Virus record (IMG/VR): IMGVR_UViG_3300045996_000340
Location: 1-43,692 of that record
Source of the DNA: a virus
Reading direction: 5' to 3' (one strand)
DNA: 43,692 nucleotides
Below are positions 20,449 to 43,692 of the stretch, one piece after another (positions within the stretch are counted from its first letter, which is position 1; each line of letters starts with the position of its first letter). The position numbers and the translations under genes were made by a program. The notes below the pieces were generated by a model, which was not told the DNA's origin, made no database searches, and worked only from the letters and a program-made list of their open reading frames with translations.

Positions 20449-20582
20449 CCGAGCGAGCGAAGCGAGGAGGGAGACCAGGGGGAGGAGAACCAGGAGGGGG
20501 AAGGACTGAGGAGGGGGGATCAGTAGAGGGTGGGGAGCCAGAAGGCTCACACTACGTACCGAGGAGGAGGCTGGGAGGAAAC
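20449..20582. repeat. Strand-asymmetric purine (G/A) tract on the plus strand with GGAGG/GAGGAGG iterations
   Basis: gagcgagcgaagcgaggagggagaccagggggaggagaaccaggagggggaaggactgaggagggggg...gaggaggaggctgggaggaa, read directly. Confidence 0.8.
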
Positions 20583-20598
20583 CTAACGCTACTACGAG

Positions 20599-20626
20599 AG
20601 GTACCCCCTCGCAGGTACCCCCTCCT
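20599..20626. repeat. Tandem 14-mer x2 (aggtaccccctcgc / aggtaccccctcct) with an inverted partial copy at 20649-20657
   Basis: Read directly. Confidence 0.8.
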
Positions 20627-20725
20627 GTCTGTCCTCGGGTCTGACATCGAGGGGTACATCAGGGGGAGACCCTCCACTACACCACCTCAGAGGCTAGGAC
20701 CTATAGGGTGTGACCCTGGGAGAGG

Positions 20726-20748
20726 GGTTGAGTGAGGGGGTAAATCGC
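20726..20748 (-). promoter_or_regulatory. Candidate phage-RNAP promoter P2 (GCGATTTACCCCCTCACTCAACC)
   Basis: Its 17-nt core is identical to P3. It sits at the edge of the non-coding region, comparable to T7 phiOL/phiOR. Confidence 0.55.
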
Positions 20749-20772
20749 ACCCACGCCAGATCAAGCACTTAG

Positions 20773-20800
20773 CTCCCCCCGGTTTGGGGGCCGGAGGGAG
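20773..20800 (-). terminator. Stem-loop after the last late gene (10-bp stem CTCCCTCCGG/CCGGGGGGAG with one G:U, 8-nt loop)
   Basis: Read directly. It lies 17 nt after the stop at 20817 and 25 nt before P2. There is no clean U-tract. Confidence 0.4.
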
Positions 20801-20816: not shown

Positions 20817-21389
20817 TTAGGCGGCTGCGACAGCCTTGATGGCGTCGAACAGCTCGGCCACCATCGGGTTGTCCGAGTGGACGTAGCGGACGATGCCGTT
20901 GACGTTGGTGAACTTGATCGCCCCATCGCGCATGCGCTCGACGGTCAGCTCGGGCGTGCCCACGGTGTCGTTCAGGCCGACCGTGAGGACCGCGTTGGTG
21001 CCCGAGGCCATGCCAGTGACGGTCATCGAGGTGCCGGTCTTGGTGACGGTCTCGTTGCCCTGGGTGCCCTTGTAGGTCGCCGTCAGGGTGACCACACCGA
21101 CGCCGCCGTCCGTGGCCACGATCGCGAGGCCAGAGGCGTTGATCGCGGCGAGGAGGGTCAGGCTGGTCGCTTCCGCGCTGGCGCCGATGGCCACCGGGAT
21201 GTTGGGAGAGGTGGTCGCACCGTTGCTGTCCAGCTCGAACGTCAGGGCGTGCGTGCTGTCGCTGATGGTGACCGTATCGCCGTCCGTGCCGGCGCTGCCG
21301 AGGGTGATCGAGCCGGTCGCCTTGACGCCGGCAGTGGTGCGGTCGAACGAGAGGAACTCGACGACCGGGGCCGCAACTTCGATTGCCAT
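20817..21389 (-). CDS. Beta-rich Gly/Thr/Ala-rich protein (190 aa) after the large terminase; candidate tail or receptor-binding protein by position only
   Basis: ORF track. Composition (GSITLGSAGTDGDTVTISDS...TLTATYKGTQGNETVTKTGTSMTVTG) suggests a beta-structure. In SP6-type phages the tail spike gene lies after the terminase. Confidence 0.6.
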   Translation of the reverse strand: MAIEVAAPVVEFLSFDRTTAGVKATGSITLGSAGTDGDTVTISDSTHALTFELDSNGATTSPNIPVAIGASAEATSLTLLAAINASGLAIVATDGGVGVVTLTATYKGTQGNETVTKTGTSMTVTGMASGTNAVLTVGLNDTVGTPELTVERMRDGAIKFTNVNGIVRYVHSDNPMVAELFDAIKAVAAA

Positions 21390-21437: not shown

Positions 21438-23153
21438 TCAGAACCAGCCTTGCTGGGTCTGCGCGGAACCGAGGGCGTGCTCTAGGAAGCGGTCGATCTC
21501 GGCCTGGAGGTGCCGCTCCCGGCTCTCGTTGAGCCTGCGGTCTGCGTCTGCGGACATCTGCTCGACCCAGTACCAGACGGCCCAGGCGAGCGCGTCGAGG
21601 CGGTCGTCGTGGACCAGGCTGCCCTTCTCACGGGTGATCCGGGTCAGCTGGTAGAACAGCTGGTACTTGAGGGCCTTCTCGGGCGGGAGGTGCTGGGTGG
21701 AGGCGAAGTCCCGCTCGACGACGCGCCTGTCGATGATCAGGCGGTGGTTGTTCATGACGGGCTCCAGGATGTCGATGATCCTGGCTTCCTTGAATGCCCG
21801 GTTGCTGGCCTTGACCTCTTCGAGGGAGCACGGGTAGATGCGACCGAGCACCGGGGCGAACAGCTTGCCCCACATGCCATCGCCGAAGTTGCCCTCGTAG
21901 ATGACCTTCTTCACCCCGTGCTCCTTGGCCTTGCGCGCCAGGGCCTCCAGGGTCTCCATGTCGTAGCCGCCCACGAAGCCACCGGCGTCCGGGACGAAGA
22001 TCTGGCTGTTGAGCATCTTCGAGATGGCGAAGGAGGTCTCGTCCTGACCGCGGCCGGACGGGTCGATCGCCATCACGGCGCCACCGTAGGGCTGCCAGAT
22101 GACGTTGCCGGCTGGGTCGCGCAGGCCATCGAGGCCCATGGGTCGGTAGAACTTGTCCCCCTTGAGGCCGACATTCGGCAGCTCCTGCCAGGTCAGCTCG
22201 GGGGCAGCGGCCCACACCACCTTCTCGGGGGCGCGCTCGGGGTTCAGGTCCATGATGACCAGGTCGCTGAGCTTCAGCGGGTGCTTCTCCTGGTCGGATA
22301 GGCTGGTGTCCAGCATGTACTGGAGGCGGAAGCCGGAGCGCCCCTGCGAGGCCTCCTTCTCCACGATGATCAGCTCGCCGAACCGGCGGGGCTCGGTGGG
22401 CTTGCCAGCGAGGGTCGGGTCGCTCTCCAAGGCGGTGAGCACAGCGGGCGCCAGCTTGGCCCCGTAGCGGGCCTGCTCGGCCGGCGTGGGGAACTTGATG
22501 GGCCAGATGCGGGTGTTGTAGCCGCGCTCGGGCAGGACCTCGTAGAGGCTGTCCTCCAGCTGCGGCGTGCCGAGGTAGATGATGCGGTGGCCCGGCCCCG
22601 GCTTGATGATGTTGTCCAGCTCGCGGACCTTCTCGCGGATCTTCTCGCGCATGGTCTGCGTCATGCTATTGTCGGGCGTTTCGATGTCGTCAGGCACGAT
22701 GACGTCAGCTCGACCACCAGTGATGTTCGAGGTGATGCCCTTCGACCTCACCGAGGGGCTCTGCTTGACGGTGGCCCCTGCGACGTCGAAACCCTCCATG
22801 GACGCACGCATATCCCCCGTGGGGGCGAGGTGCTGGAGGATCGGCATCTCCCGGAGGAGCCGGAGCATGAAGGTGGTCTGGTCTCTCGCCTTGTCCGTCG
22901 AGGCCGAGACGATGAGGATCTGCTTGTCGCAGTCGTTCAGGAGCAGCCACAGGCAGTAGGCGCCCGTGATGTAGCTCTTACCCACCCCACGGAAGGCCTC
23001 GATGATCAGCCGGTCGGGGCCATGCTGTAGGGTTTGGGCGATGTCGAGCTGGATGGCATCGGGCGGAGGGAGCTGGAGATGGTCCCAGGTCACCCGCAGG
23101 AAGTTGTCGAAACGCTTCAGGATCTTCGCTGGGATCACAGGCGCGTTGGCCAC
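21438..23153 (-). CDS. Terminase large subunit (T7 gp19-like)
   Basis: FLRVTWDHLQLPPPDAIQLDIAQTL...LIIEAFRGVGKSYITGAYCLWLL...ILIVSAS aligns with T7 gp19 ([25 protein letters not shown]...ILQAFRGIGKSFIT...ILIVSAS). GTG 23153 preceded by AAGGGAG is preferred over ATG 23192, which would include a motif copy. Confidence 0.93.
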   Translation of the reverse strand: MANAPVIPAKILKRFDNFLRVTWDHLQLPPPDAIQLDIAQTLQHGPDRLIIEAFRGVGKSYITGAYCLWLLLNDCDKQILIVSASTDKARDQTTFMLRLLREMPILQHLAPTGDMRASMEGFDVAGATVKQSPSVRSKGITSNITGGRADVIVPDDIETPDNSMTQTMREKIREKVRELDNIIKPGPGHRIIYLGTPQLEDSLYEVLPERGYNTRIWPIKFPTPAEQARYGAKLAPAVLTALESDPTLAGKPTEPRRFGELIIVEKEASQGRSGFRLQYMLDTSLSDQEKHPLKLSDLVIMDLNPERAPEKVVWAAAPELTWQELPNVGLKGDKFYRPMGLDGLRDPAGNVIWQPYGGAVMAIDPSGRGQDETSFAISKMLNSQIFVPDAGGFVGGYDMETLEALARKAKEHGVKKVIYEGNFGDGMWGKLFAPVLGRIYPCSLEEVKASNRAFKEARIIDILEPVMNNHRLIIDRRVVERDFASTQHLPPEKALKYQLFYQLTRITREKGSLVHDDRLDALAWAVWYWVEQMSADADRRLNESRERHLQAEIDRFLEHALGSAQTQQGWF

Positions 23154-23171
23154 TGCTGGCTCCCTTGCCGA

Positions 23172-23187
23172 GGTGGATAGGTCTGGG
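23172..23187 (-). promoter_or_regulatory. Motif copy CCCAGACCTATCCACC, 18 nt upstream of the TerL GTG
   Basis: CTGACCTATCCACC family. Confidence 0.45.
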
Positions 23188-23301: not shown

Positions 23302-23589
23302 CTATCTTCCGCCGAGGCGAACGACGTTGGTCTCTTCCTCGGGGTCGTAGTCCGGCAGGCTGTCGACCAGGCTGCCCAGGGCGGACCCCTTCGCGGGGAT
23401 GCCCTCGATGTGGTTGTCCTTGAGGAACTGGCGGATCACGTTGAGCGTCGCAGCCGAGGGAGGCAGGCGCTCGATGCGCTGGTCCTCGCCCTTGCCGACG
23501 AGCACGGGCTCGCCGTCGCGGATGCGCTTCAGCATGTCCTGCGCCAGCAGCTCATGGATCTTGTCCATGGTCTCTTCGGATGCGCGCAT
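23302..23589 (-). CDS. Terminase small subunit (T7 gp18-like)
   Basis: 95 aa (T7 gp18 is 89 aa), immediately upstream of TerL. Helical, charged N-terminal part. Confidence 0.7.
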   Translation of the reverse strand: MRASEETMDKIHELLAQDMLKRIRDGEPVLVGKGEDQRIERLPPSAATLNVIRQFLKDNHIEGIPAKGSALGSLVDSLPDYDPEEETNVVRLGGR

Positions 23590-23591
23590 GG

Positions 23592-23807
23592 TCAGTGAAC
23601 TCCGATCAGCTTGAGCAGGAACGACATGCCGGCGCCGGCCGCGGCACCCATGCCGAGCACTCTGGCTTGCCAGCGCTCCAGCCCGCCGAGACGGGCCTCG
23701 TGCTTGTCGAGCCGGCTCTCGTGCCGGGTCTGCGCGCCAAGGATGCCGTCCAGCTTCCCTTCCACCCGACCGATGGCCAGGAGGACTTCTCGATTGTGGT
23801 CGTCCAT
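23592..23807 (-). CDS. Small coiled-coil protein with a weakly hydrophobic C-terminus (71 aa), at the T7 17.5 position
   Basis: ORF track. ...ERWQARVLGMGAAAGAGMSFLLKLIGVH. Function unknown (a holin or antiholin is possible). Confidence 0.5.
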   Translation of the reverse strand: MDDHNREVLLAIGRVEGKLDGILGAQTRHESRLDKHEARLGGLERWQARVLGMGAAAGAGMSFLLKLIGVH

Positions 23808-23863
23808 TGGGGTATCTCAGGGTAGAGGTCCGCCCCCACCGTGTGGCAGAGGCGGACGTTGGG

Positions 23864-26800
23864 TTACTGGGCGAGGTTCAGGAGGGTGCGAACACCAGCA
23901 GGCGGCTTGCCCCGGAGGGTGTCGGCCGCAGACCGGCGATCCTGCTCGATGGCGGCCCGGAGTTCCCGGTCCTCCTTGATGAGCTGGTTCTTGGCAGCCT
24001 GGCGGTAGCTCTCGATGACCCGCTTGACGATCCTCAGCCGATGGCTGGTGAACTCGTCAGGCGCGTCAGGGACGGACTTCCGCTCGATGTCGTAGGACGG
24101 CTTGGTGATGGTGGCTTCGAGCCGCTCCATGAGGTTGTAGCGGCCGACCTTCACCTTGCCGTGCAGCTCCATCAGGCGGTCGTACTGCTTGGGCGACAAC
24201 TCGACGTTGCCGATGTTCCGCTCCGGCGGCGCAAACCCGTGCTTGAACCGGGCGATCTCGTTGATCACCACGCTCTTGCTCTGGTCCGAGATTGGGAACG
24301 GGCTGACCCGGTCGGGGTACATGACCAGGTCCTCGTAGGCGAGAGGCTCACCGGTGACCCACGAGCGCCTCGGAGGGAGGTCCTTCGAGAGGCCGGGGAT
24401 CTTGGCCCGGATGGCGTCGAACACCGACCGGATCTCGCGCATGTACTCGTCCCCGAACGGGGTCGCCGAGGCCACCTGCTGGAGGCCAGCCGAGAACGGC
24501 ACGAGCGATCCAGCGTGTCCCTGGACCCACTTCTCCATGAAGCGATCGGGCTGGGTCATGGCGTTCATGAACCGCGTCACGCCTTGGAGGTAGCTCTTGT
24601 TGGCCAGGTTGTGGGCGAGCGCCACAGCCATGCCGGTCGCGAGTTCGTCCAGCTCCTCTGCGCTGGTGTTCCCGCCCACCTCGACGAAGTCAGCGGCCAG
24701 ACCGAAGATCATCGCGAAGGGGTCGAGCCGGCCCATGTTGATGTACTTGTCGCCGACCCGCAGCGAGTAGGGCTGCCAGCCGGTCTCCATGAGACGCTGC
24801 CGCTCGTTGATGTCGGAAGGCCCAGCACCGGTGATCCGGCCACTGAGCGCCCACGTCGTCGCGGTCGCCCACATCATCGCGCCCAGGGCTTGGCGCCCCC
24901 TGGCGATGGCCACACGCTCGGCGTTGCCGGACGCGAGGTCTTCCATGAACTGGCGCTGGAGGCGGTTGATGCCGGGGGTACGCTGCCACACCGACCGGAG
25001 GATGTTTGTCGGCGTGCGGATGAACGGCATCACGACGCGGAGGCCGGGGTGAGCGGCTACCGCCTTCTGGAGGGTGCGGCCGAGGCCGTGCTCCAGATCG
25101 CGGGTGAAGGTGGCTTCCTCGGCCAGGCGCTTGGCCCAGGCGTCGGTGCCCTCACCGGTCTCCAGGAATGCCCTGTCGACCTGGTCCTCGATGTAGGCCG
25201 CCAGCTGCTTGCCCTTGATCCCCAGGTCGGAGCCGCGGACGTAGGCCTTGGAGTACAGCGTGGCGCGGTAGTTGATCTGCTTGAAGAACTCGTCCTCAGC
25301 CAGGAGGAACCGCGAGGGGATGCGGAGCACCTTGCCGAGGTAGTCCACCCCGGTGGCCAGGGTGCTGCCGTCCTTGAGGCCGAAGCTGCGGGCGGAGATC
25401 GCCTTGGCTGGGGCGTCGTAGACCATGTGCCGAGGGTCGAGGATGTTCTCCTCCAGCTTGAAGGCCTTGTCGGCCATCCGCCAGCTGTCGTTGAGCGCGG
25501 AGAAGATGCCGATGTAGTGGCGCCCCGCCTCACGGGCGACCGTCCAGTCCCCGTTGCGGATGCCGTGCTCGATGCCGCCGATCAGCTTCTCGGTCGGGAT
25601 CGTAGCCGTCTGCACCGCGTTCGAGGTCAGGTTGATCAGATGGGTCTTCGGGCCGGACAGGATCGAGTTGATCCAGTACTCGGTGTGGACGTCGAGGGCT
25701 CGGCCCCAACGGGTGGACCGGGCGAGACGCGCCAGGGCCTTGGGGTCGCCACCGGCAGCCAGCATCTTCCTGGCAACCTCGGCGGCCTTCTTCGTGCCAC
25801 CAACGGCGTTGAGCTGGTCGAGGATCTCAGCGGTGTCGATCTTCGCCCCACTGACGCTGTCGAACGTGCGGATGCGTCCGGCCGCGGTGGCCCGAGCTGC
25901 GCCCGTCTGGATGGCCTTCAGGTTGACCTGGAGGTCGCCCAGCTGCTGGATGCGCTGCACGAACTTGGCTGCGGTCTCGGCGTTGTTCGGGTCAACGACC
26001 ACCTGCTTGGAGAGGTCGTCGATGTCCCGAGCGAGGGACTGCATGAGCCGCTTGCCGGCCACCACACGGGAGGCGAGCTGCGGCATCCCCTCCGCCTTGC
26101 GGGCGAAGATGGCCATGGTCTCTTCGAGGCCGAGGTCCAGGCTGTCGGCGATGAACCGCGAGCCGTCCTGAGCGATCTTCTCGAAGCTCTGGACGCCCTT
26201 GGTCGCCTTCAGCACGTCCTCTTCGATCACACGGGCGGTGTGCTGGAGGGCTGCCTTCACGGCGTCCGGGCTGTCCATGTAGTCGAAGTTGAACAGCTTC
26301 GGGGCTGCATTCTCGAGAAAGGCTTCCTCGTCGACCAGGCCCGCCTTGACGGCGCCCATGGACGCGCGGACAGCCTCGTCGTCGACCAGCACCGGCTTCG
26401 GACGCTTGGCGCCGACACCGGCTGCCTTCATGTTCTGCCTTGCGGTAGCACCGGCAGCCTCCTCGACCACCTCGTCGGCACCGGCCACGACCTTCGCCGG
26501 GGCAGCGTCGAACAGGTCGAGCTGGATACCGCTCTCCTTGGCAGCCGCCTCGACCGCCTCGTCAACCTCGTCGAGGTGCTCGGCAGCGAACTTGGCAGCG
26601 GCCTCGGGGCCTTGCTCTGCGGCCACCTTACGGGAGGCCTTCATGAACCTGGCTGCCCGGAAGACAGCCTCGGCGGCGCCACCCAGGATGAGACCCTCGA
26701 CGGCGTTCTTGAAGCGGGCCTCGGCAGCGCTGTCCTCTTCGTCGGAGGCCAGATACTCGGTGATCGGGTTGGCCAGCATCTCGCTGGACTGGACCAGGTT

Positions 26801-27337
26801 GGACAGCCGGTCCTCGTAGGGGTCGAGCGCCACGGCATCGCCGAGCGCGCCGGCAGCGAACGGGCGGGCTACTGCCAGGGCCTTCCCACCGCCTTGCAGC
26901 AGGCGAGCGCCCTTGAGGAACTTGCCGGCCCCGACGAACCCAACGAGAGCCTGGGTGAGGCCGCGAGATACGCGACCCACGGTGGTCTCGCTGGTGGTCG
27001 CGCCGGGCAGCACGAGGGGGTTCTCCTCGGGGTAGTTGCCCCCGCCGAGAGTGCCCAGGGGGATGTGGGTCTCAAGCCAGGCGCCGGCTTCGTGGGTGAA
27101 GTCGACGGTCTCCTGGATGGCGTCACGAGCACCCCCAACGACGGACACCGCGATGTCCGTGAGGAAGCCGCGCTCTGAAGGTTGCTCAGGCTGGGCCGGG
27201 GTGGCGGCCGGAGCAGTGGCCTGCTGCGTCGGGGTGACAGGTGCGGTCTGGCCGATCGGCCGGAAGGTGTACCGGCGGGCCGGCCCGGAGGCCGACCCTT
27301 CGGTGGGAACGCCAGGGGTCACGGTGGTGGTCATCAC
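23864..27337 (-). CDS. Large internal virion / ejection protein (T7 gp16 position)
   Basis: 1157 aa, the largest ORF, following the gp15-like gene as in T7. No lytic transglycosylase motif was recognised by eye. Confidence 0.8.
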   Translation of the reverse strand: MMTTTVTPGVPTEGSASGPARRYTFRPIGQTAPVTPTQQATAPAATPAQPEQPSERGFLTDIAVSVVGGARDAIQETVDFTHEAGAWLETHIPLGTLGGGNYPEENPLVLPGATTSETTVGRVSRGLTQALVGFVGAGKFLKGARLLQGGGKALAVARPFAAGALGDAVALDPYEDRLSNLVQSSEMLANPITEYLASDEEDSAAEARFKNAVEGLILGGAAEAVFRAARFMKASRKVAAEQGPEAAAKFAAEHLDEVDEAVEAAAKESGIQLDLFDAAPAKVVAGADEVVEEAAGATARQNMKAAGVGAKRPKPVLVDDEAVRASMGAVKAGLVDEEAFLENAAPKLFNFDYMDSPDAVKAALQHTARVIEEDVLKATKGVQSFEKIAQDGSRFIADSLDLGLEETMAIFARKAEGMPQLASRVVAGKRLMQSLARDIDDLSKQVVVDPNNAETAAKFVQRIQQLGDLQVNLKAIQTGAARATAAGRIRTFDSVSGAKIDTAEILDQLNAVGGTKKAAEVARKMLAAGGDPKALARLARSTRWGRALDVHTEYWINSILSGPKTHLINLTSNAVQTATIPTEKLIGGIEHGIRNGDWTVAREAGRHYIGIFSALNDSWRMADKAFKLEENILDPRHMVYDAPAKAISARSFGLKDGSTLATGVDYLGKVLRIPSRFLLAEDEFFKQINYRATLYSKAYVRGSDLGIKGKQLAAYIEDQVDRAFLETGEGTDAWAKRLAEEATFTRDLEHGLGRTLQKAVAAHPGLRVVMPFIRTPTNILRSVWQRTPGINRLQRQFMEDLASGNAERVAIARGRQALGAMMWATATTWALSGRITGAGPSDINERQRLMETGWQPYSLRVGDKYINMGRLDPFAMIFGLAADFVEVGGNTSAEELDELATGMAVALAHNLANKSYLQGVTRFMNAMTQPDRFMEKWVQGHAGSLVPFSAGLQQVASATPFGDEYMREIRSVFDAIRAKIPGLSKDLPPRRSWVTGEPLAYEDLVMYPDRVSPFPISDQSKSVVINEIARFKHGFAPPERNIGNVELSPKQYDRLMELHGKVKVGRYNLMERLEATITKPSYDIERKSVPDAPDEFTSHRLRIVKRVIESYRQAAKNQLIKEDRELRAAIEQDRRSAADTLRGKPPAGVRTLLNLAQ

Positions 27338-32931: not shown

Positions 32932-33566
32932 TAGAAGCCCCCCTGCCTGTCGAGGATGAAGGCCACGTCGTTGCTGTCGAAGATGGAGTAGTCGGCGGTC
33001 TCGCCCTCGGCCTCCCTCAGGGCGGCGTAGGCTTGGAACTCGTCGCGCTCCGTGAAGCCGCGGATGCTCTCCTGGCCGGACAGCATGGCGTTGGCGAACT
33101 GGCGGGCGGCGCGGATCAGGATGTACCAGCGCGCAGCCTCGGGAAGGTCTACGAACTCGTAGCTGCGGACGATGTCGACCTTGATCTCGGACAGGTCGGT
33201 GATCGTGAACGTGTGCGCGTCCTTGTCCCACACCGTCCTGGTGCCGCCATCGTCCCGGACAGTGAACCGGGGGCCAGGCCCCTTGCCGCTCGGGTAGAGC
33301 TTGCGCGGAAAGGTGACCTGCATGGCGTTGACGGGGATGGTGAACTTGTTGGCGGTCGGGGTCAGAGACCACTCGCGGTCGGTGTTGAACTCCCAGCCGT
33401 CCTTCTGGACCTCACGGGTGACCTCGGTGAGGATCGCGAGGGCTTCCTGGATGTCCTCTCGGGCGTCGGCTGCGGCGTTCGTGATGCTGGTCACGCGGGC
33501 GATGCCGATGGTGCTCAGCATTCGGTTCACCGCCTCAAGCTCGGTGGTGTTCGTAGGGTTGGCCAT
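32931..33566 (-). CDS. Tail tubular protein A (T7 gp11-like)
   Basis: 211 aa. The N-terminal TELEAVNRMLSTIG pattern is typical of gp11 homologues. Confidence 0.88.
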   Translation of the reverse strand: MANPTNTTELEAVNRMLSTIGIARVTSITNAAADAREDIQEALAILTEVTREVQKDGWEFNTDREWSLTPTANKFTIPVNAMQVTFPRKLYPSGKGPGPRFTVRDDGGTRTVWDKDAHTFTITDLSEIKVDIVRSYEFVDLPEAARWYILIRAARQFANAMLSGQESIRGFTERDEFQAYAALREAEGETADYSIFDSNDVAFILDRQGGF

Positions 33567-33585
33567 GGCTCGCCTCTGTGAAATG

Positions 33586-33631
33586 CAAAAAAGCAGGCCC
33601 CTCCCTGGGGTTAGCCAGAGAGGGAACCTGC
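33586..33631 (-). terminator. Strong intrinsic terminator directly after the major capsid gene (T7 Tphi-like position)
   Basis: Minus strand GCAGG-TT-CCCTCTCTGG-CTAACC-CCAGGGAGGG-G-CCTGC followed by TTTTTT. Confidence 0.7.
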
Positions 33632-33661
33632 CGGGTTGGGGTAGTCAGGTGGTGAGCTGGA

Positions 33662-34606
33662 CTAGCTCGACTTCACCTCGGCAGCCGCCTCGGGGCGCAG
33701 CACGCCGGAGCCGACGATCATCTTGCTGAGGAGCAGGGTGGCCTGCTTCTCGATGATCCACGCGCTCTCGGACGCGACGTCCATCAGGCGGACGGTGCCG
33801 ATCGCCGACTTGTGGCCGGCCAGGCAGACGGTGGTGCTGAAGTCACCATGGTAGGTGTTGTTCGCACCAGACGGGCTCGACGCGATGTTGGTGACCGGGA
33901 CGTTGTTGGTCTTCACGATCTCCAGGCCGGCGACCTTGAGGACCGTGCCCTCGGCGTAGGCGCCGTTGGCGACGTTCCAGTCGCGGTTCAGGACCTTCGT
34001 GGTCTGGCCGAGCAGGTAGTACTGGGCCGGCTTCACGAAGAGGCAACGGTCCTCGCTCGGGACGTCGTTCTCGTCGAACCGCTGCGCGATGTCGAACGCG
34101 ATCGAGGCCAGGGTCTCGCCGTTGGTGCCGGCGTTCGCGTTGGTGATCGCGTAGCCGTCCGGGGCGTCGTTGCCGAAGATGTCGGTGCCGCGAGCGGCCA
34201 GGGCCAGCACGATCTGGACGGTGCTGTCGAACGAGTTGGCGAGGGCGTCGGCCTGCATCGAGCTGTACATGCTGCGGACGTCGAAGTGGTTCACCAGCTC
34301 ATCCCACTGGGCGATGTAGTTCGAGCTGACCAGCGGGTAGTCGACGCCGATGGTGCGCTCGCCGTGCTTGATCACGCTCTGCGCAACCTCGTTGCCCGGC
34401 GTGACGTAGCCGGCGGTCGCGCGCCAGGTGGCGGGGAACTGAGCGGTCTTGGCACCACCGCCGAGCTGGCGGACCAGGTGCCGGGTGTTCATGACCGACT
34501 TGCGCAGGAAGGCCGTGAGGACCTCGCCAGCGAACTTCTTGAGGAAGAGGGCCAGGGCGTCGCCGGTGGCATTCGCCTGACCGAGGCGGGAAACGGTGTA
34601 GGCCAT
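33662..34606 (-). CDS. Major capsid protein (T7 gp10A-like)
   Basis: Internal ATG MAYTVSRLGQANATGDALALFLKKFAGEVLTAFLRKSVMNTRHLVR...AKTAQFP...NHFDVRSMYSS aligns with T7 10A (GDKLALFLKVFGGEVLTAFARTSV...GKSAQFP...NHYDVRSEYTS). Confidence 0.95.
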   Translation of the reverse strand: MAYTVSRLGQANATGDALALFLKKFAGEVLTAFLRKSVMNTRHLVRQLGGGAKTAQFPATWRATAGYVTPGNEVAQSVIKHGERTIGVDYPLVSSNYIAQWDELVNHFDVRSMYSSMQADALANSFDSTVQIVLALAARGTDIFGNDAPDGYAITNANAGTNGETLASIAFDIAQRFDENDVPSEDRCLFVKPAQYYLLGQTTKVLNRDWNVANGAYAEGTVLKVAGLEIVKTNNVPVTNIASSPSGANNTYHGDFSTTVCLAGHKSAIGTVRLMDVASESAWIIEKQATLLLSKMIVGSGVLRPEAAAEVKSS

Positions 34607-34791
34607 TGGAGTAGTCCTGTGAGACTGGGGTTGGACGGATGTCCGACCGGTCAGCCCCATCAGCCGCCACGCAGGGGTGTCCCGAAGGCCTCTCCCGCGG
34701 GAGAGACAAGCAGCGGGGCCAAGGTGTCTGCTACTGGGCGGTTGGTCGGTCCAGCATGCGCTGGGCAGCCCTCTTACGAGAGGCACTGCTC

Positions 34792-34819
34792 TTGACTCAC
34801 TCACGAGGGAATGTAAACC
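34792..34819 (+). promoter_or_regulatory. Candidate sigma70-type promoter of the plus-strand moron (TTGACT-N16-TAAACC)
   Basis: Read directly. GGAGGG SD at 34845-34850, 7 nt before ATG 34858. Confidence 0.3.
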
Positions 34820-34857
34820 TGGTAAGTTAGGGGGATCGGGAAACGGAGGGTCACCCG

Positions 34858-35469
34858 ATGAAGACAATGCTTCCTCTAGCCCTGGGGGCATTTCTACTGC
34901 TGTCCGCTGGCGAATCTGTACTTGCGGCTGATGTACGTTGCTCAGACGGAATAACGGCCTCCGATGCTCACACTCCCAACCTGACGGTTCGGGCGGATTC
35001 AATTCTCTTTTGCGTCAATGAAGACTCGGATCGAGCGATCCTCTTTTTTCGAGCATCTGCGATGGTGAACCGCAGCTTCCCGGATTACAATTCCGCTCCT
35101 TGGCTAGCATTGAGGGTGTTTGATGATCAGGGGCAAGAGATCTTCGCAGATCCAACCTTTTGGGTGGCGACCGTGGCGCCATGCGGAGGCTATCACCCCC
35201 ATGCAATTGCGGTTCCCCGGAAGTTTGACTTTGAGGAAGCCTACTCAATCGAAGTCCAGCTGACGGGAAATGTTGGTGGGCGGACCAATTGCGGCACTCG
35301 GCCATCGGGATTTTTTGAGGCGGCTTGGTATGACGTGCAAAACAAGGTCGACAAGTGGCGAAGATTAGAGTTCAGCGAAGCCGAAAAGATGGCGATCAAG
35401 GCATACTTTAGTGGCGGAGGCGCGGCGGCAGGGTCGGATGGTGCTGCCCTCGGTGGCGGCGGCTACTGA
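34858..35469 (+). CDS. Exported protein (signal peptide), plus-strand moron inside the structural module
   Basis: MKTMLPLALGAFLLLSAGESVLA / ADVRC.... 4 Cys and a Gly/Ala-rich tail. Strong SD. Visibly AT-richer than the flanks. Opposite strand. Confidence 0.65.
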   Translation: MKTMLPLALGAFLLLSAGESVLAADVRCSDGITASDAHTPNLTVRADSILFCVNEDSDRAILFFRASAMVNRSFPDYNSAPWLALRVFDDQGQEIFADPTFWVATVAPCGGYHPHAIAVPRKFDFEEAYSIEVQLTGNVGGRTNCGTRPSGFFEAAWYDVQNKVDKWRRLEFSEAEKMAIKAYFSGGGAAAGSDGAALGGGGY

Positions 35470-35565
35470 CCCAGGGATAAGGCCGGGTTCCCGCCAGGGA
35501 GGTCCCGGTGATCGCCCACACGTTATGTCGGCTTCGTGCCTGGCTGGGCGGCCCGTTGTCGGGTC

Positions 35566-36246
35566 TTACGAAACGCCGAGGATGGATTTGATGGCGTTGA
35601 CGCACGCCGAGGCGGCGAGCACGTGGCCCGCGGCCGAGGGGTGGACCTTGTCGGCCTGCCAGTGTGCCGTGGGCGTGGTAGGGTTCGAGCCGTCAGCCGT
35701 GAATGCTGCGTCGAGGTCGAACAGCCCACGACCTGAGGGGTTGCCGGCACGCATCCAGGTGTTCACCACCCCGTACTCGTCGATGAACGTGCTCTGAGTG
35801 CCGGGTGACCACGGGAGGACGGTGGTCAGGACAACGTGATCCCAGCCAGCCGAGACGCGGGCGTTGTAGTAGTTAGTCTGGTTCGTCTGCTCGTTCGCTG
35901 CGGTGGTCGTACCGGTGGTCGACAGGTAGTTCGTGCCTTCGAGCATGATCACCATGTTCGTCCGCTGGGCGTCCAGGAGGACGTCGACCGTCGCCGCGGC
36001 GCGCGTCACGAGAGATGGGGTGGTGATGCCGTCCGTGGCCACCTTGGTCATCACCACGTCCCAGCCGAGGGCGACCAGGGCGTCGTAGACCAGGTGCGGG
36101 TAGGCCTGGGTGGTCGGCGAGGCCAGCCCGAAACCGCGGGGGACCGAGTTGCCGTCGAACACGAGGTTGACCGCGGTGGAGAAGGACCGAACCAGGCCCC
36201 GCGTCAGGCTCCGCTTGATGGGGAGGATCAGGGGGCGCTTGTACAT
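35566..36246 (-). CDS. SGNH/GDSL-family hydrolase (esterase/deacetylase)
   Basis: Block I VFDGNSV (GDS-type nucleophile Ser), block III EGTNY, block V DKVHPS (D-x-x-H). 226 aa. Confidence 0.75.
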   Translation of the reverse strand: MYKRPLILPIKRSLTRGLVRSFSTAVNLVFDGNSVPRGFGLASPTTQAYPHLVYDALVALGWDVVMTKVATDGITTPSLVTRAAATVDVLLDAQRTNMVIMLEGTNYLSTTGTTTAANEQTNQTNYYNARVSAGWDHVVLTTVLPWSPGTQSTFIDEYGVVNTWMRAGNPSGRGLFDLDAAFTADGSNPTTPTAHWQADKVHPSAAGHVLAASACVNAIKSILGVS

Positions 36247-36251
36247 CGGCC

Positions 36252-36524
36252 CTACCCCGCGAGGCCGGCGTCAACGGTGCCAGAGGTGATGGTCGCCGAG
36301 AACCGCATCTGCGGCATGGCGGTCACCTGCTGGGCGCCGCTGGCGGAGAACGAGTGAAGGTCGACCCAGCCGAACAGGTCCGAGATGCGGCCCTGGACCT
36401 TCACGGTCGCCGTGGCGGTGATGTCGACCTGGGCGATGACGTAGGGCCGAGCGGCGAAGCTCTGGACGTGCTGAGCGGTGCTGTCGGCGGTGGACGCCTG
36501 CGCAGTGAAGTGGACTTGGTACAT
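36252..36524 (-). CDS. Hypothetical beta-rich protein (90 aa)
   Basis: ORF track. It ends 5 nt before the SGNH gene start. Confidence 0.5.
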   Translation of the reverse strand: MYQVHFTAQASTADSTAQHVQSFAARPYVIAQVDITATATVKVQGRISDLFGWVDLHSFSASGAQQVTAMPQMRFSATITSGTVDAGLAG

Positions 36525-36527
36525 GGC

Positions 36528-36719
36528 TTACTCCGCTGGCTCGCAGAGATCGAGCCATTTGGTGTTGTGGGTGAAGATGCCCCGCTTGGTCTCGTCCGTG
36601 TCCCGGCTCGACCAGGTGATGGGTTGGAAGATCAGGCAAGCGGATGCCGGTGGGTTAGTCCCGCTGGAACTCGCGCATCCGCTGAGCAAGATCACTGAGG
36701 TCAGCAGAAGCCATTTCAC
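36528..36719 (-). CDS. Outer-membrane lipoprotein, o-spanin (Rz1-like) candidate
   Basis: GTG start preceded by GGGGGA. M/VKWLLLTSVILLSGC is a lipoprotein signal with an LSGC lipobox. The short mature part has 2 further Cys. It starts inside the 3' end of the i-spanin-like gene in another frame. Confidence 0.55.
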   Translation of the reverse strand: MKWLLLTSVILLSGCASSSGTNPPASACLIFQPITWSSRDTDETKRGIFTHNTKWLDLCEPAE

Positions 36720-36882
36720 GTTCGATCCCCCGTGCAGCTTGAACTTGCTCAAGGGCCTCCGTGGCATTGGCCAGGCGGACCTCGTTGCGGCCGGACTGCT
36801 TGGCTTGCTCGTGGCGGTACAGCTCGAACAGGCCGGATGCGAACGAGAGGAGAGCCTTGAGGAAGGTCAGGATGGTGGCCAT
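36655..36882 (-). CDS. i-spanin (Rz-like) candidate: N-terminal TM plus charged coiled-coil
   Basis: MATILTFLKALLSFASGLF then a helical, charged region. It overlaps the lipoprotein gene as in Rz/Rz1 pairs. At 75 aa it is short for an i-spanin. Confidence 0.45.
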   Translation of the reverse strand: MATILTFLKALLSFASGLFELYRHEQAKQSGRNEVRLANATEALEQVQAARGIEREMASADLSDLAQRMREFQRD

Positions 36883-36900
36883 GGGCGGCTCCAGAACGCA

Positions 36901-36937
36901 GAAAAGGCCCCCTCCCAGCGTGAGCCAGGAGGGAGCC
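36901..36937 (-). terminator. Stem-loop plus short U-run between the holin-like gene and the spanin-like genes
   Basis: Minus strand GGCTCCCTCCTGG-CTCACG-CTGGGAGGGGGCC then TTTTC. The stem includes G:U pairs. Confidence 0.4.
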
Positions 36938-36961
36938 TCTACGGAACAGGATGGGGTGGAA

Positions 36962-37156
36962 CTACTGGGCCTTCGGCTTGGCGCCGACGAGGGCGGCCAG
37001 CTTGAACACGACGCGGTAGAAGACCGCGACGTACTCGTCGTCCTTCGGGGTCTTGGTTATCTTGGTGATCGCGACCGCGAGCGCCTGGGCGGCGATGACG
37101 ACACCGAGGATGGCCAGGAGGGTTTCCTGGCTGACGTACTGCTCGATGAACTCCAT
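36962..37156 (-). CDS. Holin-like small membrane protein (64 aa)
   Basis: TM segment LLAILGVVIAAQALAVAI, a charged loop, a second amphipathic or hydrophobic stretch and a basic C-terminus. It lies immediately upstream of the spanin-like pair. Confidence 0.45.
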   Translation of the reverse strand: MEFIEQYVSQETLLAILGVVIAAQALAVAITKITKTPKDDEYVAVFYRVVFKLAALVGAKPKAQ

Positions 37157-37163
37157 GGGGAGC

Positions 37164-37183
37164 CCTCCGGGTGAGGGTTAGAA
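37164..37183 (-). promoter_or_regulatory. Weaker promoter-like variant TTCTAACCCTCACCCGGAGG overlapping the scaffold stop
   Basis: It shares TAACCCTCAC with the T3 promoter and CCCTCAC with P1-P3, but the flanks diverge. Confidence 0.25.
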
Positions 37184-37978
37184 AGCGGCGTTGGCGATCT
37201 TGGCGTCGACCATCGCGTGAAAGGCGGGATCACCCGAGATGTACCGGGGGTCGTTCATGTCCCTGGTCATCTCCTGGACGCTCTGGTAGCCGACCGGCTT
37301 GGCGTTGGTCTGACCGGTGACCAGGTTCGGACGGATGCCCTCGGCCGCGGCGAACCGGGCGTGGAGCCCGCTGACGGCGAGCTTGGCCTGGTCCATCGAG
37401 CCCTTGGTGACCGCCTCGTTGTAGGCGGCGATCTCAGCATCGGAGAGGTTGGCGCCGGCCCACTCGGTCATCTTCGCGAAGCTCTCGGTACCGCCCGCCA
37501 GGCTGTAGAGGGCGTTGGCGTTGGCCTCGGCGAGCGCCTTCTGGCCAGCGATGTAGGCGTCGACCATCGGCTTCGGGATGCCGGCCTGCTCCAGGGTCTG
37601 GTAGCTCTCGGGCGCCAGGTCACCCTTCTCGGCGAACTCGGCCGACAGGGCGTCGAAGTTCAGGCCGGCGTTCTGCACCGCCTGCTGCGCCGCATCCGGG
37701 GTCGCCGGGGCCTCGGTGGTCTCGGTGATGACGGCCGGCGTCTCGGTCTTGGATGCGGTGCTCTGGCCGAGCTTGCTCTCCAGGGCCTTGTAGGCGGCCA
37801 GGAGATCCTCGGTCGTCTTGAACTTGCCGCCGATCAGCTCCGCGCCCTGCTGGGGCTGAGGTGCGGGGGCCTCGGGGGCCGCCGTCGATTGGGCGGCCAC
37901 CGTGGTGTTGGCAGGAGGGGCAGCCGGTGCGTCGGCACCCGAGGGGGCACTGACGAGCGTAGCGCTTGCGTAGGTCAT
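37178..37978 (-). CDS. Scaffolding protein (T7 gp9 position)
   Basis: 266 aa, Ala/Glu/Gln-rich, no Cys. It directly follows the portal gene. Confidence 0.75.
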   Translation of the reverse strand: MTYASATLVSAPSGADAPAAPPANTTVAAQSTAAPEAPAPQPQQGAELIGGKFKTTEDLLAAYKALESKLGQSTASKTETPAVITETTEAPATPDAAQQAVQNAGLNFDALSAEFAEKGDLAPESYQTLEQAGIPKPMVDAYIAGQKALAEANANALYSLAGGTESFAKMTEWAGANLSDAEIAAYNEAVTKGSMDQAKLAVSGLHARFAAAEGIRPNLVTGQTNAKPVGYQSVQEMTRDMNDPRYISGDPAFHAMVDAKIANAAF

Positions 37979-37987
37979 TTATCCACC

Positions 37988-38002
37988 CGTGGATTGTTCA
38001 GG
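37988..38002 (-). promoter_or_regulatory. Motif copy CCTGAACAATCCACG abutting the portal stop; forms the palindrome ATCCACCCGTGGAT (37981-37994) with an opposite-strand half copy
   Basis: CTGACCTATCCACC family. Confidence 0.4.
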
Positions 38003-39568
38003 TCACGCGGCTTGCGGGGCGCCTTGGGCGGCCTGCCTCATGAGGTCCATCGCCTTCGGCCCGAGCTTCTCGATCAGGGCCTGGAGCTGGATCTGCTGGT
38101 CGGCCTGCGCCAGCTCGTCGACGGAGCGGATCAGACCATCGGTGTCGATGCCGTCCATCGTGGCGAGACGGGAGACGAGGTTGTTGAGATGCACCACCTT
38201 GGCGAGCTGCTCGGGGCCGATCGCCTGACCAAGGGTGGCCAGGAAGTTGACCAGCTTGTTGCGGTCCTGCGAGCGCCCGAGGGCTTCGAGACCGGTGACG
38301 ATCTTCGGCTTCACGATCCCCTTGGGGAGCTTCGGCCAGCCGGCCCGACCGGAGGTACGCTTCAGCTTCACCCGGATGTAGGGCAGCTGGAACTCCTGCG
38401 AGAGGACCGAGTAGATGCCGCCGAGGCTGGTCTCCAGCTCGGTGGCCATGAGGCGGATCTCTTCGGCGGTCACGCGCTCGGCGTCCCGCTGGATCGAGCT
38501 GTTGAGCAGGAAGGCCTGCGCCAGGCGGTTCTCGATCCGGGAGATGGTCTCCAGGGCGACGCGGAAGTCGTTGAACTTCTCCATCTGGACGACGGAGACG
38601 TCCTCGGCGTTGCCCTCGCGGATGGCACCGTTGGGGGCCTGGGACAGGGTGTCCTTCTTGGTCGTGCCGTTGGGGTTGACCAGGATCAGCACCTTGGCTG
38701 CGGCAGCCGTGCCCTCGACGATCGCCTTCGAGAGGCCTTCGAGCGACTTCAGGTCGCCGTAGAACTCCTCGACGTAGCCGCGCCCGTAGTCCTCACCAGC
38801 GATGCGGACCATGCGGAGGGCGTGCCACGGCAGGGCGTCCAGGGGGTAGGTGCCCCGGCTGCCCGGAATGACCTCGCCACAGGTGACCTCCTGGTGGATG
38901 GTCCACTGGCGGGGAACCCGCTTGATCCAGGTGTAGATGTCGACCGTCGCGTTCGGGTCGGTGCTCGGAGGGGCGTCCTTCATGGCCGCCTCGCGGACCT
39001 CCTCGGGGAGGACCGTGGGGGCGACGCTCTCCTTGACCACGATCTCGACCAGGTTGCCGCGGGGATCGCGCTTGCAGACGAAGCTGTCGAGGTGGAAGAC
39101 CCGGAGGCCGACCTCCTCGTCGTCGTGAAGGAGGACGTTGCCGGGGATCAGGAGGTGCTTCATGGCCTCACCGAGAGCGACCCGATCGGCCTTGGTCTCG
39201 ATGTCGTCCATGACGGCCCGCTCGTAGCGAGCCAGGCCCTTCTGGATCTCAGTCGCGGCCTCGTCACCCCCTTGCAGCTTGGCCTGCTCCAGGACGAAGT
39301 CGTCCACGGCGAGGCGGAAGAAGGGGCTGTTGGGCGGCAGGAGCGACAGCAGCAGCTTCGAGGCGAGGTTGTTGACGCCTCGGGCGCCGACGCTCTGGAA
39401 GGTCTGGTAAAGGTTTGAGGTTGCGGTGTGCCCACTCTCGGGGAGCAGGCTCGGGATGGTCAGCTTCGAGATCTCCCGGCCCCGCTTGAGGTAGGGATCG
39501 CGGAGGCCGGCGAGCTGGAGATACCGCCCTGCGGCGGTTTCGTTGATGACAGGACCGGCCTCAGCCAT
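38003..39568 (-). CDS. Portal (head-tail connector) protein (T7 gp8-like)
   Basis: 521 aa. ...LQLAGLRDPYLKRGREISKLTIPSLLP...LYQTFQSVGARGVNNLASKLLLSLLPPNSPFFRL is typical of podovirus connector proteins. Confidence 0.92.
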   Translation of the reverse strand: MAEAGPVINETAAGRYLQLAGLRDPYLKRGREISKLTIPSLLPESGHTATSNLYQTFQSVGARGVNNLASKLLLSLLPPNSPFFRLAVDDFVLEQAKLQGGDEAATEIQKGLARYERAVMDDIETKADRVALGEAMKHLLIPGNVLLHDDEEVGLRVFHLDSFVCKRDPRGNLVEIVVKESVAPTVLPEEVREAAMKDAPPSTDPNATVDIYTWIKRVPRQWTIHQEVTCGEVIPGSRGTYPLDALPWHALRMVRIAGEDYGRGYVEEFYGDLKSLEGLSKAIVEGTAAAAKVLILVNPNGTTKKDTLSQAPNGAIREGNAEDVSVVQMEKFNDFRVALETISRIENRLAQAFLLNSSIQRDAERVTAEEIRLMATELETSLGGIYSVLSQEFQLPYIRVKLKRTSGRAGWPKLPKGIVKPKIVTGLEALGRSQDRNKLVNFLATLGQAIGPEQLAKVVHLNNLVSRLATMDGIDTDGLIRSVDELAQADQQIQLQALIEKLGPKAMDLMRQAAQGAPQAA

Positions 39569-39579: not shown

Positions 39580-39834
39580 TTACCGTGGGATTTGGAGACC
39601 ACCTGCGACGGCGCTGGTAGCAGCACCACCGGAGCGGCGGAGAGGGATGATCAGGCGGCTACGCCCCTGCCTCGGGTTATCACCCTGACCACCGATGACC
39701 GGGCTGAGCCGCGGGCCACCAGCCGGCACGAACGCAGGCGGAGGCGGTGGAGGAGGAGGAGGGGGCGGAGGCGGAGGAGGTGGGGCCACAGGCGCAGGGG
39801 CCGGCTTGGGGGTCTTGACCTTCGGGGCACACAT
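39580..39834 (-). CDS. Proline-rich small protein (84 aa) with a 16-residue poly-Pro run; T7 7.3-position virion protein candidate
   Basis: ORF track. MCAPKVKTPKPAPAPVA-P16-AFVPAGG... Confidence 0.5.
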   Translation of the reverse strand: MCAPKVKTPKPAPAPVAPPPPPPPPPPPPPPPPAFVPAGGPRLSPVIGGQGDNPRQGRSRLIIPLRRSGGAATSAVAGGLQIPR

Positions 39835-42684: not shown

Positions 42685-43692
42685 TTGCGATGGCCTCCCT
42701 CGCCATGAGCTGTACTTCGTCGTGGACGTGGGCGGCCGGCCACCAATCCGTGGGGACAACCAAGCCCTGGGTGGATAGGTCACGGCGCAAGAGAACCGTG
42801 GCCGTCTTGAAGGCGATCGAGCCGGTGGATTGCAGGAGGGTGTTCAGGGCGCTGTGCTGCGAGCGCACCGGGACGGCACGGCCGTCGATGCCCTTCAGCC
42901 AGTCGCGGCCCTCCAGGGCCTTCGCCAGGTCACCCATGAGGGTGCCCTTCTGGCCGACCTTGCCGATGCCGAGGCCCTTCGCGAGGCGGTCGCGGACAGC
43001 CTTGCCGAGCTTCTGTGGGTTGGTGCTCGGCGGGGTGAGGCCCAGCCTGGCGTAGTACTCCAGCACGATCGTGCCGAGCTTCTTGTCGCCCGCCCCGTAG
43101 AGCAGGGCGTACATCTCGGTCTTGGAGCAGTCACGGTTGGGGCTCAGCTCTTGGAGCGCATCCATGTTGACCTGGTGGATGTCGCCTTCGAGCAGCTCCT
43201 TGATGAACTTCCCGTCGTCGTACCTTGCGAGGTAGTGGCCGAGGCAGCGCAGCTCCAAGCCGGACGCGTCGGCGCCGACCTGGAGGTAGCCCTCGGGGGC
43301 GTGGAACAGACTGCGGCATTCCCAGCCGAAGCCGCCCTCGATCCCCATGAGGATGACCTTCTTGCCGTCGACCTTCGTGACCTGGACCTTCGGCACCTGG
43401 GTCACGTTCGGCCTGCGGTGGGTGCAGCGATGGGTCGGCGTCCCGATCGGGATCACCTCGCCGTGGATGCGGCCGTTGGCCTTGACCGCCTTGAGCCAGC
43501 CTTCCTTGCCGTCGCCGAGCTGGCCCAGCCGCTTCGCCACCATGAGGTACTCCGCGAGCTGCGGCGCCTCCGGGTAGGGGAGCTGGCTGATCACCACGTC
43601 GTCGACCTTGGGGTGGCCGTCCTTGGTGAACTCCTGCGGCACCCAGCCCCTGAGCTTCTTCAGGCGGTCGGCGATGTGGTGCCGGCTGCTCG
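42569..43692 (-). CDS. DNA polymerase, T7 gp5-like, C-terminal polymerase part (continuation of 1..928; 43600-43692 duplicates 1-93)
   Basis: RRPNVTQVPK, DASGLELRCLGHYL, ALLYGAGDKKLG, HVHDEVQL, and C-terminal FRCPLDGEYKVGKNWAETH (T7 ends FRCLLDTEGKMGPNWAICH). Confidence 0.95.
   Translation of the reverse strand, partial: SSRHHIADRLKKLRGWVPQEFTKDGHPKVDDVVISQLPYPEAPQLAEYLMVAKRLGQLGDGKEGWLKAVKANGRIHGEVIPIGTPTHRCTHRRPNVTQVPKVQVTKVDGKKVILMGIEGGFGWECRSLFHAPEGYLQVGADASGLELRCLGHYLARYDDGKFIKELLEGDIHQVNMDALQELSPNRDCSKTEMYALLYGAGDKKLGTIVLEYYARLGLTPPSTNPQKLGKAVRDRLAKGLGIGKVGQKGTLMGDLAKALEGRDWLKGIDGRAVPVRSQHSALNTLLQSTGSIAFKTATVLLRRDLSTQGLVVPTDWWPAAHVHDEVQLMAREAIANELGMSAVQSIRRAGERLGFRCPLDGEYKVGKNWAETH
42770..42785 (-). 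promoter_or_regulatory. Motif copy CCGTGACCTATCCACC inside the DNAP coding region (codons RRDLSTQ), upstream of 42361..42684
   Basis: CTGACCTATCCACC family. It is the only copy clearly inside a long gene. Confidence 0.35.
43600..43692. repeat. Contig-end duplication (identical to 1..93)
   Basis: See feature 1..93. Confidence 0.9.

Follow-up and report, generated by a model that had tools for sequence, protein, structure and literature searches.

A probable layered accessory slot, holding lysis genes and cargo, at the scaffold-capsid junction of a T7-like phage genome

The scaffold-capsid interval in the window and its relatives

The IMG/VR record IMGVR_UViG_3300045996_000340 (43,692 nt, analysed over its whole length and hereafter called the window) is a circularly permuted T7-like phage genome in which the phage genes all lie on the minus strand. 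Between its scaffold gene (T7 gp9-like; 37178-37978, minus strand; PF05396 Phage_T7_Capsid, 3e-15), which forms the upstream boundary, and its major capsid protein gene (T7 gp10-like; 33662-34609, minus strand; PF21703, 6e-52), which forms the downstream one, the distance is 2568 nt. Six open reading frames (ORFs) intervene, each present at the coordinates given in an earlier, sequence-only annotation (the original prediction). We propose that this interval is an accessory slot built of three layers, and we give the layered lysis reading as a whole a probability of about 0.7. The first layer would be a lysis trio, consisting of w64, w75 and a lipoprotein, that was inherited directly after the scaffold gene and appears to be no new insertion, because related phages already show the same layout. 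The second, w90 and an SGNH-type esterase, appears to be clade-specific, and the third, w203, appears to be unique to the window genome among its relatives.

Relatives were surveyed by iterative searches over 94 capsid-anchored loci (labelled L0xx), with a non-redundant set of 66. The scaffold-capsid gap exceeded 350 nt in 34 of these 66 and the two genes were adjacent in 32; the premise that scaffold and capsid genes are normally adjacent thus holds for T7 itself but not for this branch. Of the 34 non-redundant loci with the wide gap, 24 were called by a simple heuristic as having a lipoprotein, a small ORF of strong hydrophobicity, or both, and non-homologous sets of holin-like, transmembrane (TM) and lipoprotein genes fill the slot in other clades (L027, L033, L037 and L075-L094). 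It was also noticed that the slot of L024 encodes a 120-aa protein (6469-6831) whose N-terminus carries a lipobox (AAGC) and whose C-terminal part includes a hydrophobic segment; it resembles a u-spanin.

The same trio was found directly after the scaffold gene in Pseudomonas phage LUZ100 (OP329100) and in the metagenomic or MAG relatives L011, L015-L017, L018 and L019. Capsid proteins of L015-L017, three close relatives, are 88-96% identical to that of the window, and the trio also holds this position in relatives with a capsid identity of just 48-57%. The lipoprotein of L011 and L019 has diverged past detection, yet it is present, with the lipoboxes LTSC and IAGC, and its gene overlaps that of the w75 homologue. 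In the Ralstonia phage BOESR1 (OR367448, Gyeongsanvirus), genes annotated as holin, hypothetical protein (a TM protein of i-spanin size) and 'Rz-like spanin' lie between those for head assembly (scaffold) and the major head protein, and in ProddE an endolysin and a holin sit in the slot. Lysis genes at this place are therefore already visible in the deposited annotations of BOESR1 and ProddE; our literature searches found no paper treating lysis genes at the gene 9/10 junction. Taken together, the gap survey, the synteny of the trio and the precedents of BOESR1 and ProddE indicate that lysis genes recurrently occupy the gene 9/10 junction in this T7-like branch.

LUZ100 shares with the window a T7-like genome with a MarR-like regulator, an integrase and a tRNA-Leu, as well as the trio after the scaffold gene and a terminator after the w64 homologue (the mapped terminator T13 in LUZ100, a terminator-like hairpin in the window). 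In the window, the integrase is encoded at 13440-14624 and the MarR-like regulator at 14832-15182, for which reason we count this genome among the "temperate-looking" T7-like phages, of which LUZ100 is one. LUZ100 differs from the window in lacking w90, the esterase and the reverse-strand gene w203, in place of which its slot holds small ORFs and a tRNA-Asn, and in having a T7-type amidase, a gp17 tail fibre and a gp17.5-type holin. The BOESR1 o-spanin is homologous to that of the window and belongs to the same family, phrog_1275, but the BOESR1 holin is a two-TM-domain protein of phrog_1356 unrelated to w64, its i-spanin is a 100-aa protein with a clear TM domain (TMD), its spanin genes are separate and do not overlap, and its slot carries no extra cargo. 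At the level of near-identity, a megablast search of the interval against GenBank phages gave no match, and the best capsid identity was 50%.

An Rfam scan of 33400-38100 returned sub-threshold noise only, and tRNA remnants in the slot of the window were ruled out, ARAGORN giving none there. Directly ahead of the capsid leader, the slots of L016 (6725-6800), LUZ100 (20831-20906) and RHEph21 (23109-23182), which represent three separate lineages, were observed to hold a tRNA-Asn(GTT) gene, which the window, L015 and L017 lack.

The probable spanin pair and w64

The lipoprotein is an o-spanin. Its gene (36528-36719, minus strand) starts with GTG at 36719 and encodes the 63-aa precursor MKWLLLTSVILLSGC, which matched phrog_1275 (Rz-like spanin) at 7.3e-14; LUZ100 gp38 and the BOESR1 'Rz-like spanin', to which it is 41% and 30% identical, matched the same family at 1.6e-12 and 5.3e-16, respectively. 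The signal sequence comprises an n-region Lys, a hydrophobic core and the lipobox LSGC, in agreement with the consensus [LVI][ASTVI][GAS]C compiled by Kongari et al. 2018 (PMC6139136). The mature protein of 49 aa begins with C-A-S, having Ala at position +2 and no Asp, as is required for sorting to the outer membrane, and contains two further Cys that are conserved in LUZ100 gp38, L018 and BOESR1. The gene overlaps that of w75 by 65 nt in another frame (86 nt in LUZ100), and the out-of-frame overlap is kept in L011, L018, L019 and L015-L017. The window thus resembles lambda Rz/Rz1 (PMC6139136), where an outer-membrane lipoprotein that has Cys residues in its periplasmic part and a lipobox of the consensus type is likewise encoded out of frame across the 3′ end of the gene for a helical protein with an N-terminal hydrophobic helix; the arrangement is overlapped in the window, as opposed to embedded in T7. 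The lipobox, the family match and the overlap bear out the o-spanin call of the original prediction.

The overlapping partner, w75 (75 aa; 36655-36882, minus strand), is considered i-spanin-like from its position, the overlap and a weak similarity to the 100-aa BOESR1 protein (1e-3), which itself has weak Rz-like matches only (1.3e-3 and weaker). It consists of an amphipathic, marginally hydrophobic N-terminal helix followed by a charged helical region, and it contains no Cys. It is 35% identical to the product of an unannotated LUZ100 ORF (20275-20511), and homologues are present in all eight trio loci. Several observations weigh against this assignment. The N-terminal helix has a KD19 maximum of 1.68 and a Hessa dG of +2.1, below the thresholds for a TMD, and across the family the values (KD19 0.94-1.76, Hessa dG +2 to +8) and the high amphipathic moment predict no autonomous TMD, whereas the comparators BOESR1 (2.35 / -0.8) and lambda Rz (2.63 / -2.5) have clear ones. 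The protein is also unusually short, and no PHROG or Pfam match was obtained for w75, which places it outside the recognised i-spanin families, or for the LUZ100 ORF. Its short length, the lack of Cys and the sub-threshold helix all set w75 apart from lambda Rz. Of the TM plus coiled-coil i-spanin originally predicted, the place in a spanin pair, the overlap and the charged helical body were thus retained, but the TMD is marginal only; among the TM and lipoprotein signals of the trio, the TMD of w64 and the lipobox of the lipoprotein were recovered, with the w75 segment alone falling under the KD19 and Hessa thresholds. We consider it probable, on these sequence features, that w75 is an i-spanin-like partner with a marginal anchor.

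For LUZ100, spanin equivalents could not be annotated (Putzeys et al. 2023, PMC10134795). The ORF at 20275-20511 is a 78-aa, GTG-initiated reading frame missing from the annotation, and it overlaps gp38 (20426-20617), which is annotated as 'hypothetical'. Given the phrog_1275 match of gp38 and the similarity of both products to the pair in the window, gp38 and this ORF are the evident candidates for the spanin pair reported missing.

The first gene of the trio, w64 (64 aa; 36962-37156, minus strand), begins 21 nt past the scaffold stop codon and encodes a protein of phrog_9685 with one strong TMD (KD19 2.50, Hessa dG -0.7). It has a K-rich flank (TKITKTPKDDE) and the C-terminal end AKPKAQ, that is, the small size, TMD and charged hydrophilic C-terminus expected of a holin, and it is 53% identical to LUZ100 gp37. 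In the family the turn T-x-T-P-[KR]-D-D is invariant, and the C-terminal part forms an amphipathic helix. A word-index search with w64 gave only 3 proteins and tblastn against phages gave nothing, probably through low-complexity masking and the short query, but the family became visible through a motif-based locus search, by which at least 120 relatives were found in IMG/VR. Eighty w64-family loci were fetched, 12 of which were T7-like; among the other 68, an endolysin homologue (a hit to any of six endolysin queries) was located within 3.5 kb in 48, against a chance expectation that we estimate at roughly 10-17% for a 40-80 kb genome. One such locus, L169, encodes an Rz-like i-spanin, the w64 homologue and an endolysin, in that order. 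This enrichment of endolysin neighbours suggests a lysis role for w64, most simply that of a holin; in the window, w64 adjoins the spanin genes and the endolysin gene is 33 kb away.

We infer the topology of w75 and all lysis activities of the trio as follows. On the evidence of gene neighbourhood, the single-TMD protein w64 would most likely act as a holin or holin partner and would allow degradation of the cell wall by the GH108 endolysin, whose gene is 33 kb distant. The w75 protein would be anchored at or in the inner membrane by its short amphipathic N-terminal helix, with its helical domain reaching the periplasm, and the 49-residue mature lipoprotein would be sorted to the outer membrane. 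The spanin complex would then fuse or disrupt the outer membrane.

Cargo genes and competing explanations

The minus-strand genes of the interval are closely packed, the start of w90 lying 4 nt past the o-spanin stop codon and that of the esterase gene 6 nt past the w90 stop. The w90 protein (90 aa; 36252-36524, minus strand) is beta-rich and possibly structural, and it had only 4 clusters in a database of 5.8 billion proteins; homologues were found in L015-L017 and in L007. The esterase (226 aa; 35566-36246, minus strand) is of the SGNH/GDSL type, as originally predicted, with catalytic blocks recognised by inspection as FDGNS (Ser, block I), LEGTNY (Asn, block III) and ADKVHPS (Asp-x-x-His, block V), and with a PF13472 match (4.3e-7, 31.0 bits) just under the cutoff. 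Its homologue in L015 scored 26.4 bits and matched phrog_6102 'lipase' at 8.6e-9, and the sole PDB sequence match of the window protein was marginal (9otv, a lysophospholipase-like esterase, E 0.13). Among the loci surveyed, the pair of w90 and esterase was found only in the close clade, with a w90 homologue also in L007.

The L015 and L017 esterases continue into a C-terminal Laminin_G_3 domain (6e-11), a lectin domain that matched 'virion structural protein' PHROGs; downstream of the esterase gene of L016 come those of a phrog_644 protein and of a 488-aa repeat protein that matched "minor tail protein". Just past its capsid gene, L007 encodes the homologue of w90 and, beyond it, a LamG 'virion structural protein'. 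By analogy with these relatives, the w90-esterase module may be virion-associated and act on host surface polysaccharide, a proposal that we put forward tentatively. Weighing against it are the PF13472 score of 31.0 bits against a cutoff of 32.9 (and 19.4 against 23.6 for PF00657), the lack of an esterase homologue among GenBank phages, the poor AlphaFold2 model of w90 (predicted local distance difference test, pLDDT, 53), which was too low to justify a fold search, and the fact that virion association of the esterase is taken from the relatives only. In its favour, the window (23302-27337) and its close relatives L180 and L183 have no gp17-type fibre at the canonical site, which is the stretch from the gp16-like gene to TerS. 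As a separate observation, a 190-aa ORF, w190, follows TerL in the window (20817-21389); it was not among the high-GC3 (third-codon-position GC) plus-strand ORFs listed after TerL in L180 and L183, where no direct search for it was made.

On the plus strand, w203 (34858-35469) is a real gene with low GC, a signal peptide and four conserved Cys. It has a GC content of 55.4% and a GC3 of 0.56, compared with 65.7% GC for the genome and a GC3 of 0.89-0.95 for the phage genes around it, the overlapping spanin pair left aside, and it is absent from L015-L017 and the other relatives surveyed; at its spot, L017 carries a different reverse-strand ORF with a signal peptide. An exhaustive phmmer search gave 36 homologues, and the four Cys were conserved in their alignment. 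The AlphaFold2 model (pLDDT 78) has a confident beta-sandwich core, for which the fold matches were weak and to generic beta-sandwiches, including the DUF1425/Cj0090 lipoproteins; the family had no Pfam match and no PDB sequence match. These results support the foreign, exported-protein moron of the original prediction, and suggest that w203 was acquired horizontally and that its product is an exported, disulfide-bonded beta-sandwich protein.

Three other explanations for the content of the interval were weighed. The original prediction had attributed it to a single recent insertion of 2.6 kb, by which a holin/spanin cassette would have reached the head module and come to separate scaffold and capsid genes that are otherwise adjacent. 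The adjacency of these genes in T7 and in 32 of the 66 non-redundant relatives would agree with such an event, as would the lack of a spanin between TerS and TerL in the window, but synteny with relatives, the check that had been suggested for it, contradicts it: LUZ100, L011, L018, L019 and L015-L017 all carry the trio in this slot, even where capsid identity is only 48-57%, and only w90 and the esterase are clade-specific and only w203 unique. In addition, the o-spanin of the window is homologous to the one in the same slot of BOESR1, and the three layers differ in phyletic spread and composition, so that a single recent insertion is very improbable. That the interval encodes head-decoration or capsid-associated proteins instead of lysis proteins we regard as improbable, although less so. 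It would suit the small, beta-rich w90, whose L007 homologue lies just after the capsid gene, beside a 105-aa protein that follows the capsid in 10 prophage loci and whose family gave a weak profile match to w90 (53% probability, E 1.3e-4). However, it would apply to w90 and the esterase at most, the lipoprotein being a clear Rz1-type family member and w64 and w75 being membrane or helical proteins with lysis-gene neighbourhoods, and the w90 model is too poor for comparison with decoration folds. It was noticed separately that the 105-aa protein, which is conserved, beta-rich and encoded directly after the capsid gene at about 7930-8260 in L005-L010, L020, L021, L023 and L026, belongs to T7-like prophages of Melainabacteria/Vampirovibrionales metagenome-assembled genomes; it may be a decoration protein weakly related to w90. 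SGNH enzymes include peptidoglycan O-acetylesterases, and the esterase might accordingly be a lysis accessory, released through the holin lesions, that de-O-acetylates peptidoglycan or cleaves envelope lipid esters so that the GH108 enzyme can act. Its gene does lie two genes downstream of the spanins in one closely packed gene string, and the endolysin is of the muramidase type, but the protein has no signal peptide or other export signal, no homologue of it was found in phage lysis cassettes, and its relatives are fused to a lectin domain or have a minor-tail-like gene beside them. We therefore hold this role to be quite improbable.

For w64 the choice is closer. It may not be a holin but an antiholin or lysis-timing regulator, a membrane tether or an exclusion factor, co-expressed with portal and scaffold, in which case the holin would be w71 (71 aa; 23592-23807, minus strand), whose N-terminus is a coiled coil and which has a hydrophobic segment at the C-terminal end; w71 occupies the position of T7 gene 17.5, as gp50 does in LUZ100. 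Several observations point this way and count against w64 as the holin: LUZ100 owns the T7-type holin gp50 besides gp37; w71, which is conserved at the 17.5 position in L183, gave a weak XhlA match (0.0094) beside its phrog_5225 match of unknown function, and so is a second candidate at the canonical holin site; RHEph21 carries a w64 homologue without an annotated spanin beside it; a conserved terminator-like hairpin separates w64 from the spanin genes; and the endolysin of the window is not adjacent. Moreover, w64 matched only PHROGs of unknown function (phrog_9685 and phrog_402), no Pfam family was found in 7 family members searched, and w64 is similar neither to LUZ100 gp50 nor to the BOESR1 holin, which leaves it outside the described holin families. 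On the other side, the family is strongly enriched beside endolysins and spanins in unrelated phages (the 48 of 68 loci above), BOESR1 has a phrog_1356 holin at the corresponding position, and w71 is unlike gp50 and has a weak hydrophobic segment (KD19 1.65). We consider the non-holin roles possible but somewhat doubtful. The holin-like membrane protein of the original prediction thus kept its strong TMD and its place before the spanin pair, but its family is annotated as of unknown function; from gene neighbourhood, it is quite probable that w64 has some lysis-related membrane role, and the chances that it is the holin itself appear even. A further-reaching proposal, that w64 represents an unrecognised, widespread family of single-TMD holins and w75 a minimal i-spanin anchored by an amphipathic helix, which would make them the smallest holin/spanin module described and explain the 'spanin-less' status of LUZ100, is one we would advance with considerable reserve.

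Transcription signals, other window features and implications

Between w64 and the spanin genes, a terminator- or attenuator-like stem-loop (36901-36937, minus strand) is followed by a T-rich run. It has a stem of 14 bp or more, its 36-nt core is identical in four sequences (the window and L015-L017), and the consensus fold has 20 pairs and -35.9 kcal/mol, so the predicted stem-loop is real. In LUZ100, the experimentally mapped terminator T13 follows gp37 at the equivalent site, while phi7, the promoter of the capsid gene, is placed beyond the spanin genes. With the conserved hairpin after w64 and this placement of T13 and phi7, co-transcription of the lysis genes with the capsid gene, as originally proposed, is not shown.

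The sequence TGYGCCCTGACCTATCCACC occurs in eight minus-strand copies (42780, 40713, 23182, 9280, 9004, 6465, 5597 and 951), mostly just upstream of genes and in several cases at places expected for T7-like promoters, such as before the RNA polymerase and SSB genes; these copies are probably promoters of the phage RNA polymerase. The copy at 23182 was observed to lie inside the called start of TerL, whose start codon may be wrong. No site of this type was found in 34500-37300, the best position weight matrix score there being negative, and no sigma-70-like promoter was found in 33400-38100. The T3-like promoter variant predicted at 37164-37183 is not supported and amounts to a lone 10-nt identity, TAACCCTCAC at 37180, which runs over the stop codon of the scaffold gene and the ribosome-binding site of w64; the 10-mer is identical to the core of the T3 promoter and is unlike TGYGCCCTGACCTATCCACC.

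The capsid gene is preceded by a structured 5′ leader (34610-34800, minus strand), in which about 190 nt, including a GNRA hairpin and the palindrome CTCTCCCGCGGGAGAG, located exactly at 34690-34705 as predicted, are highly conserved in four sequences. Of 56 predicted pairs, 4 show compensatory changes, in support of the structured leader of the original prediction. The leader had no Rfam match, and no leader motif recurs elsewhere in the window; a processing site, translation control and a divergent promoter are candidates for its role. A terminator-like hairpin is also present by the capsid gene, at 33598-33625.

The endolysin gene (3700-4413/4497, minus strand) lies after that of endonuclease I, in the DNA-metabolism module, and hence at the T7 gene 3.5 position, far from the spanin locus, as had been predicted. 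Its product is a GH108 muramidase with a PG_binding_3 domain (phrog_315, 5e-44; PF05838, 7e-24; PF09374, 2e-14), by which an identity as a T7 gp3.5-type amidase was ruled out, the domains not being Amidase_2. Since the endolysin is not a T7 lysozyme, the T7-type regulatory link between lysozyme and RNA polymerase is probably absent. T7 and the window are alike in that holin, endolysin and two-component spanin are scattered over the genome and the endolysin gene follows endonuclease I. The T7 lysis set, however, consists of the gp3.5 amidase, the gp17.5 holin and the gp18.5/18.7 spanins, whereas the window has a GH108 + PG_binding_3 endolysin and its spanin genes after gene 9, with none between TerS and TerL.

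About 90 nt (some 30 codons) are repeated at the two window ends (1-100 and 43600-43692), inside the DNA polymerase gene. The DNA polymerase ORF spans the ends, and the peptide SSRHHIADRLKKLRGWVPQEFTKDGHPKVD occurs twice in the joined ORF; the repeat is an assembly overlap of a circular contig. Further side observations were made elsewhere in the window. A tRNA-Leu(CAA) gene (10372-10458, minus strand) is followed by a stretch of about 3 kb with lower GC (60-61%) up to the integrase gene (to 13440). This stretch contains plus-strand ORFs, e.g. 11125-11796, and could represent a further island of cargo genes or the region of an attachment site. Past TerL and w190, some 2 kb of GC-rich sequence (18650-20800) has no convincing ORF and probably contains the physical genome ends or the region of a terminal repeat. 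Just upstream of the portal gene, an 84-aa ORF (39580-39834, minus strand) encodes a run of about 20 prolines.

These findings leave the understanding of lysis itself unchanged. For LUZ100, the spanin candidates amount to an annotation fix that is directly testable in a cultivated phage, and phrog_9685, a common family of small proteins of unknown function, gains a lysis assignment that can be tested. In a large T7-like branch, many members of which carry an integrase or are borne as prophages, the gene 9/10 junction appears to be a recurrent slot for lysis genes and cargo, and annotation by synteny modelled on T7 will miss the genes that it holds.

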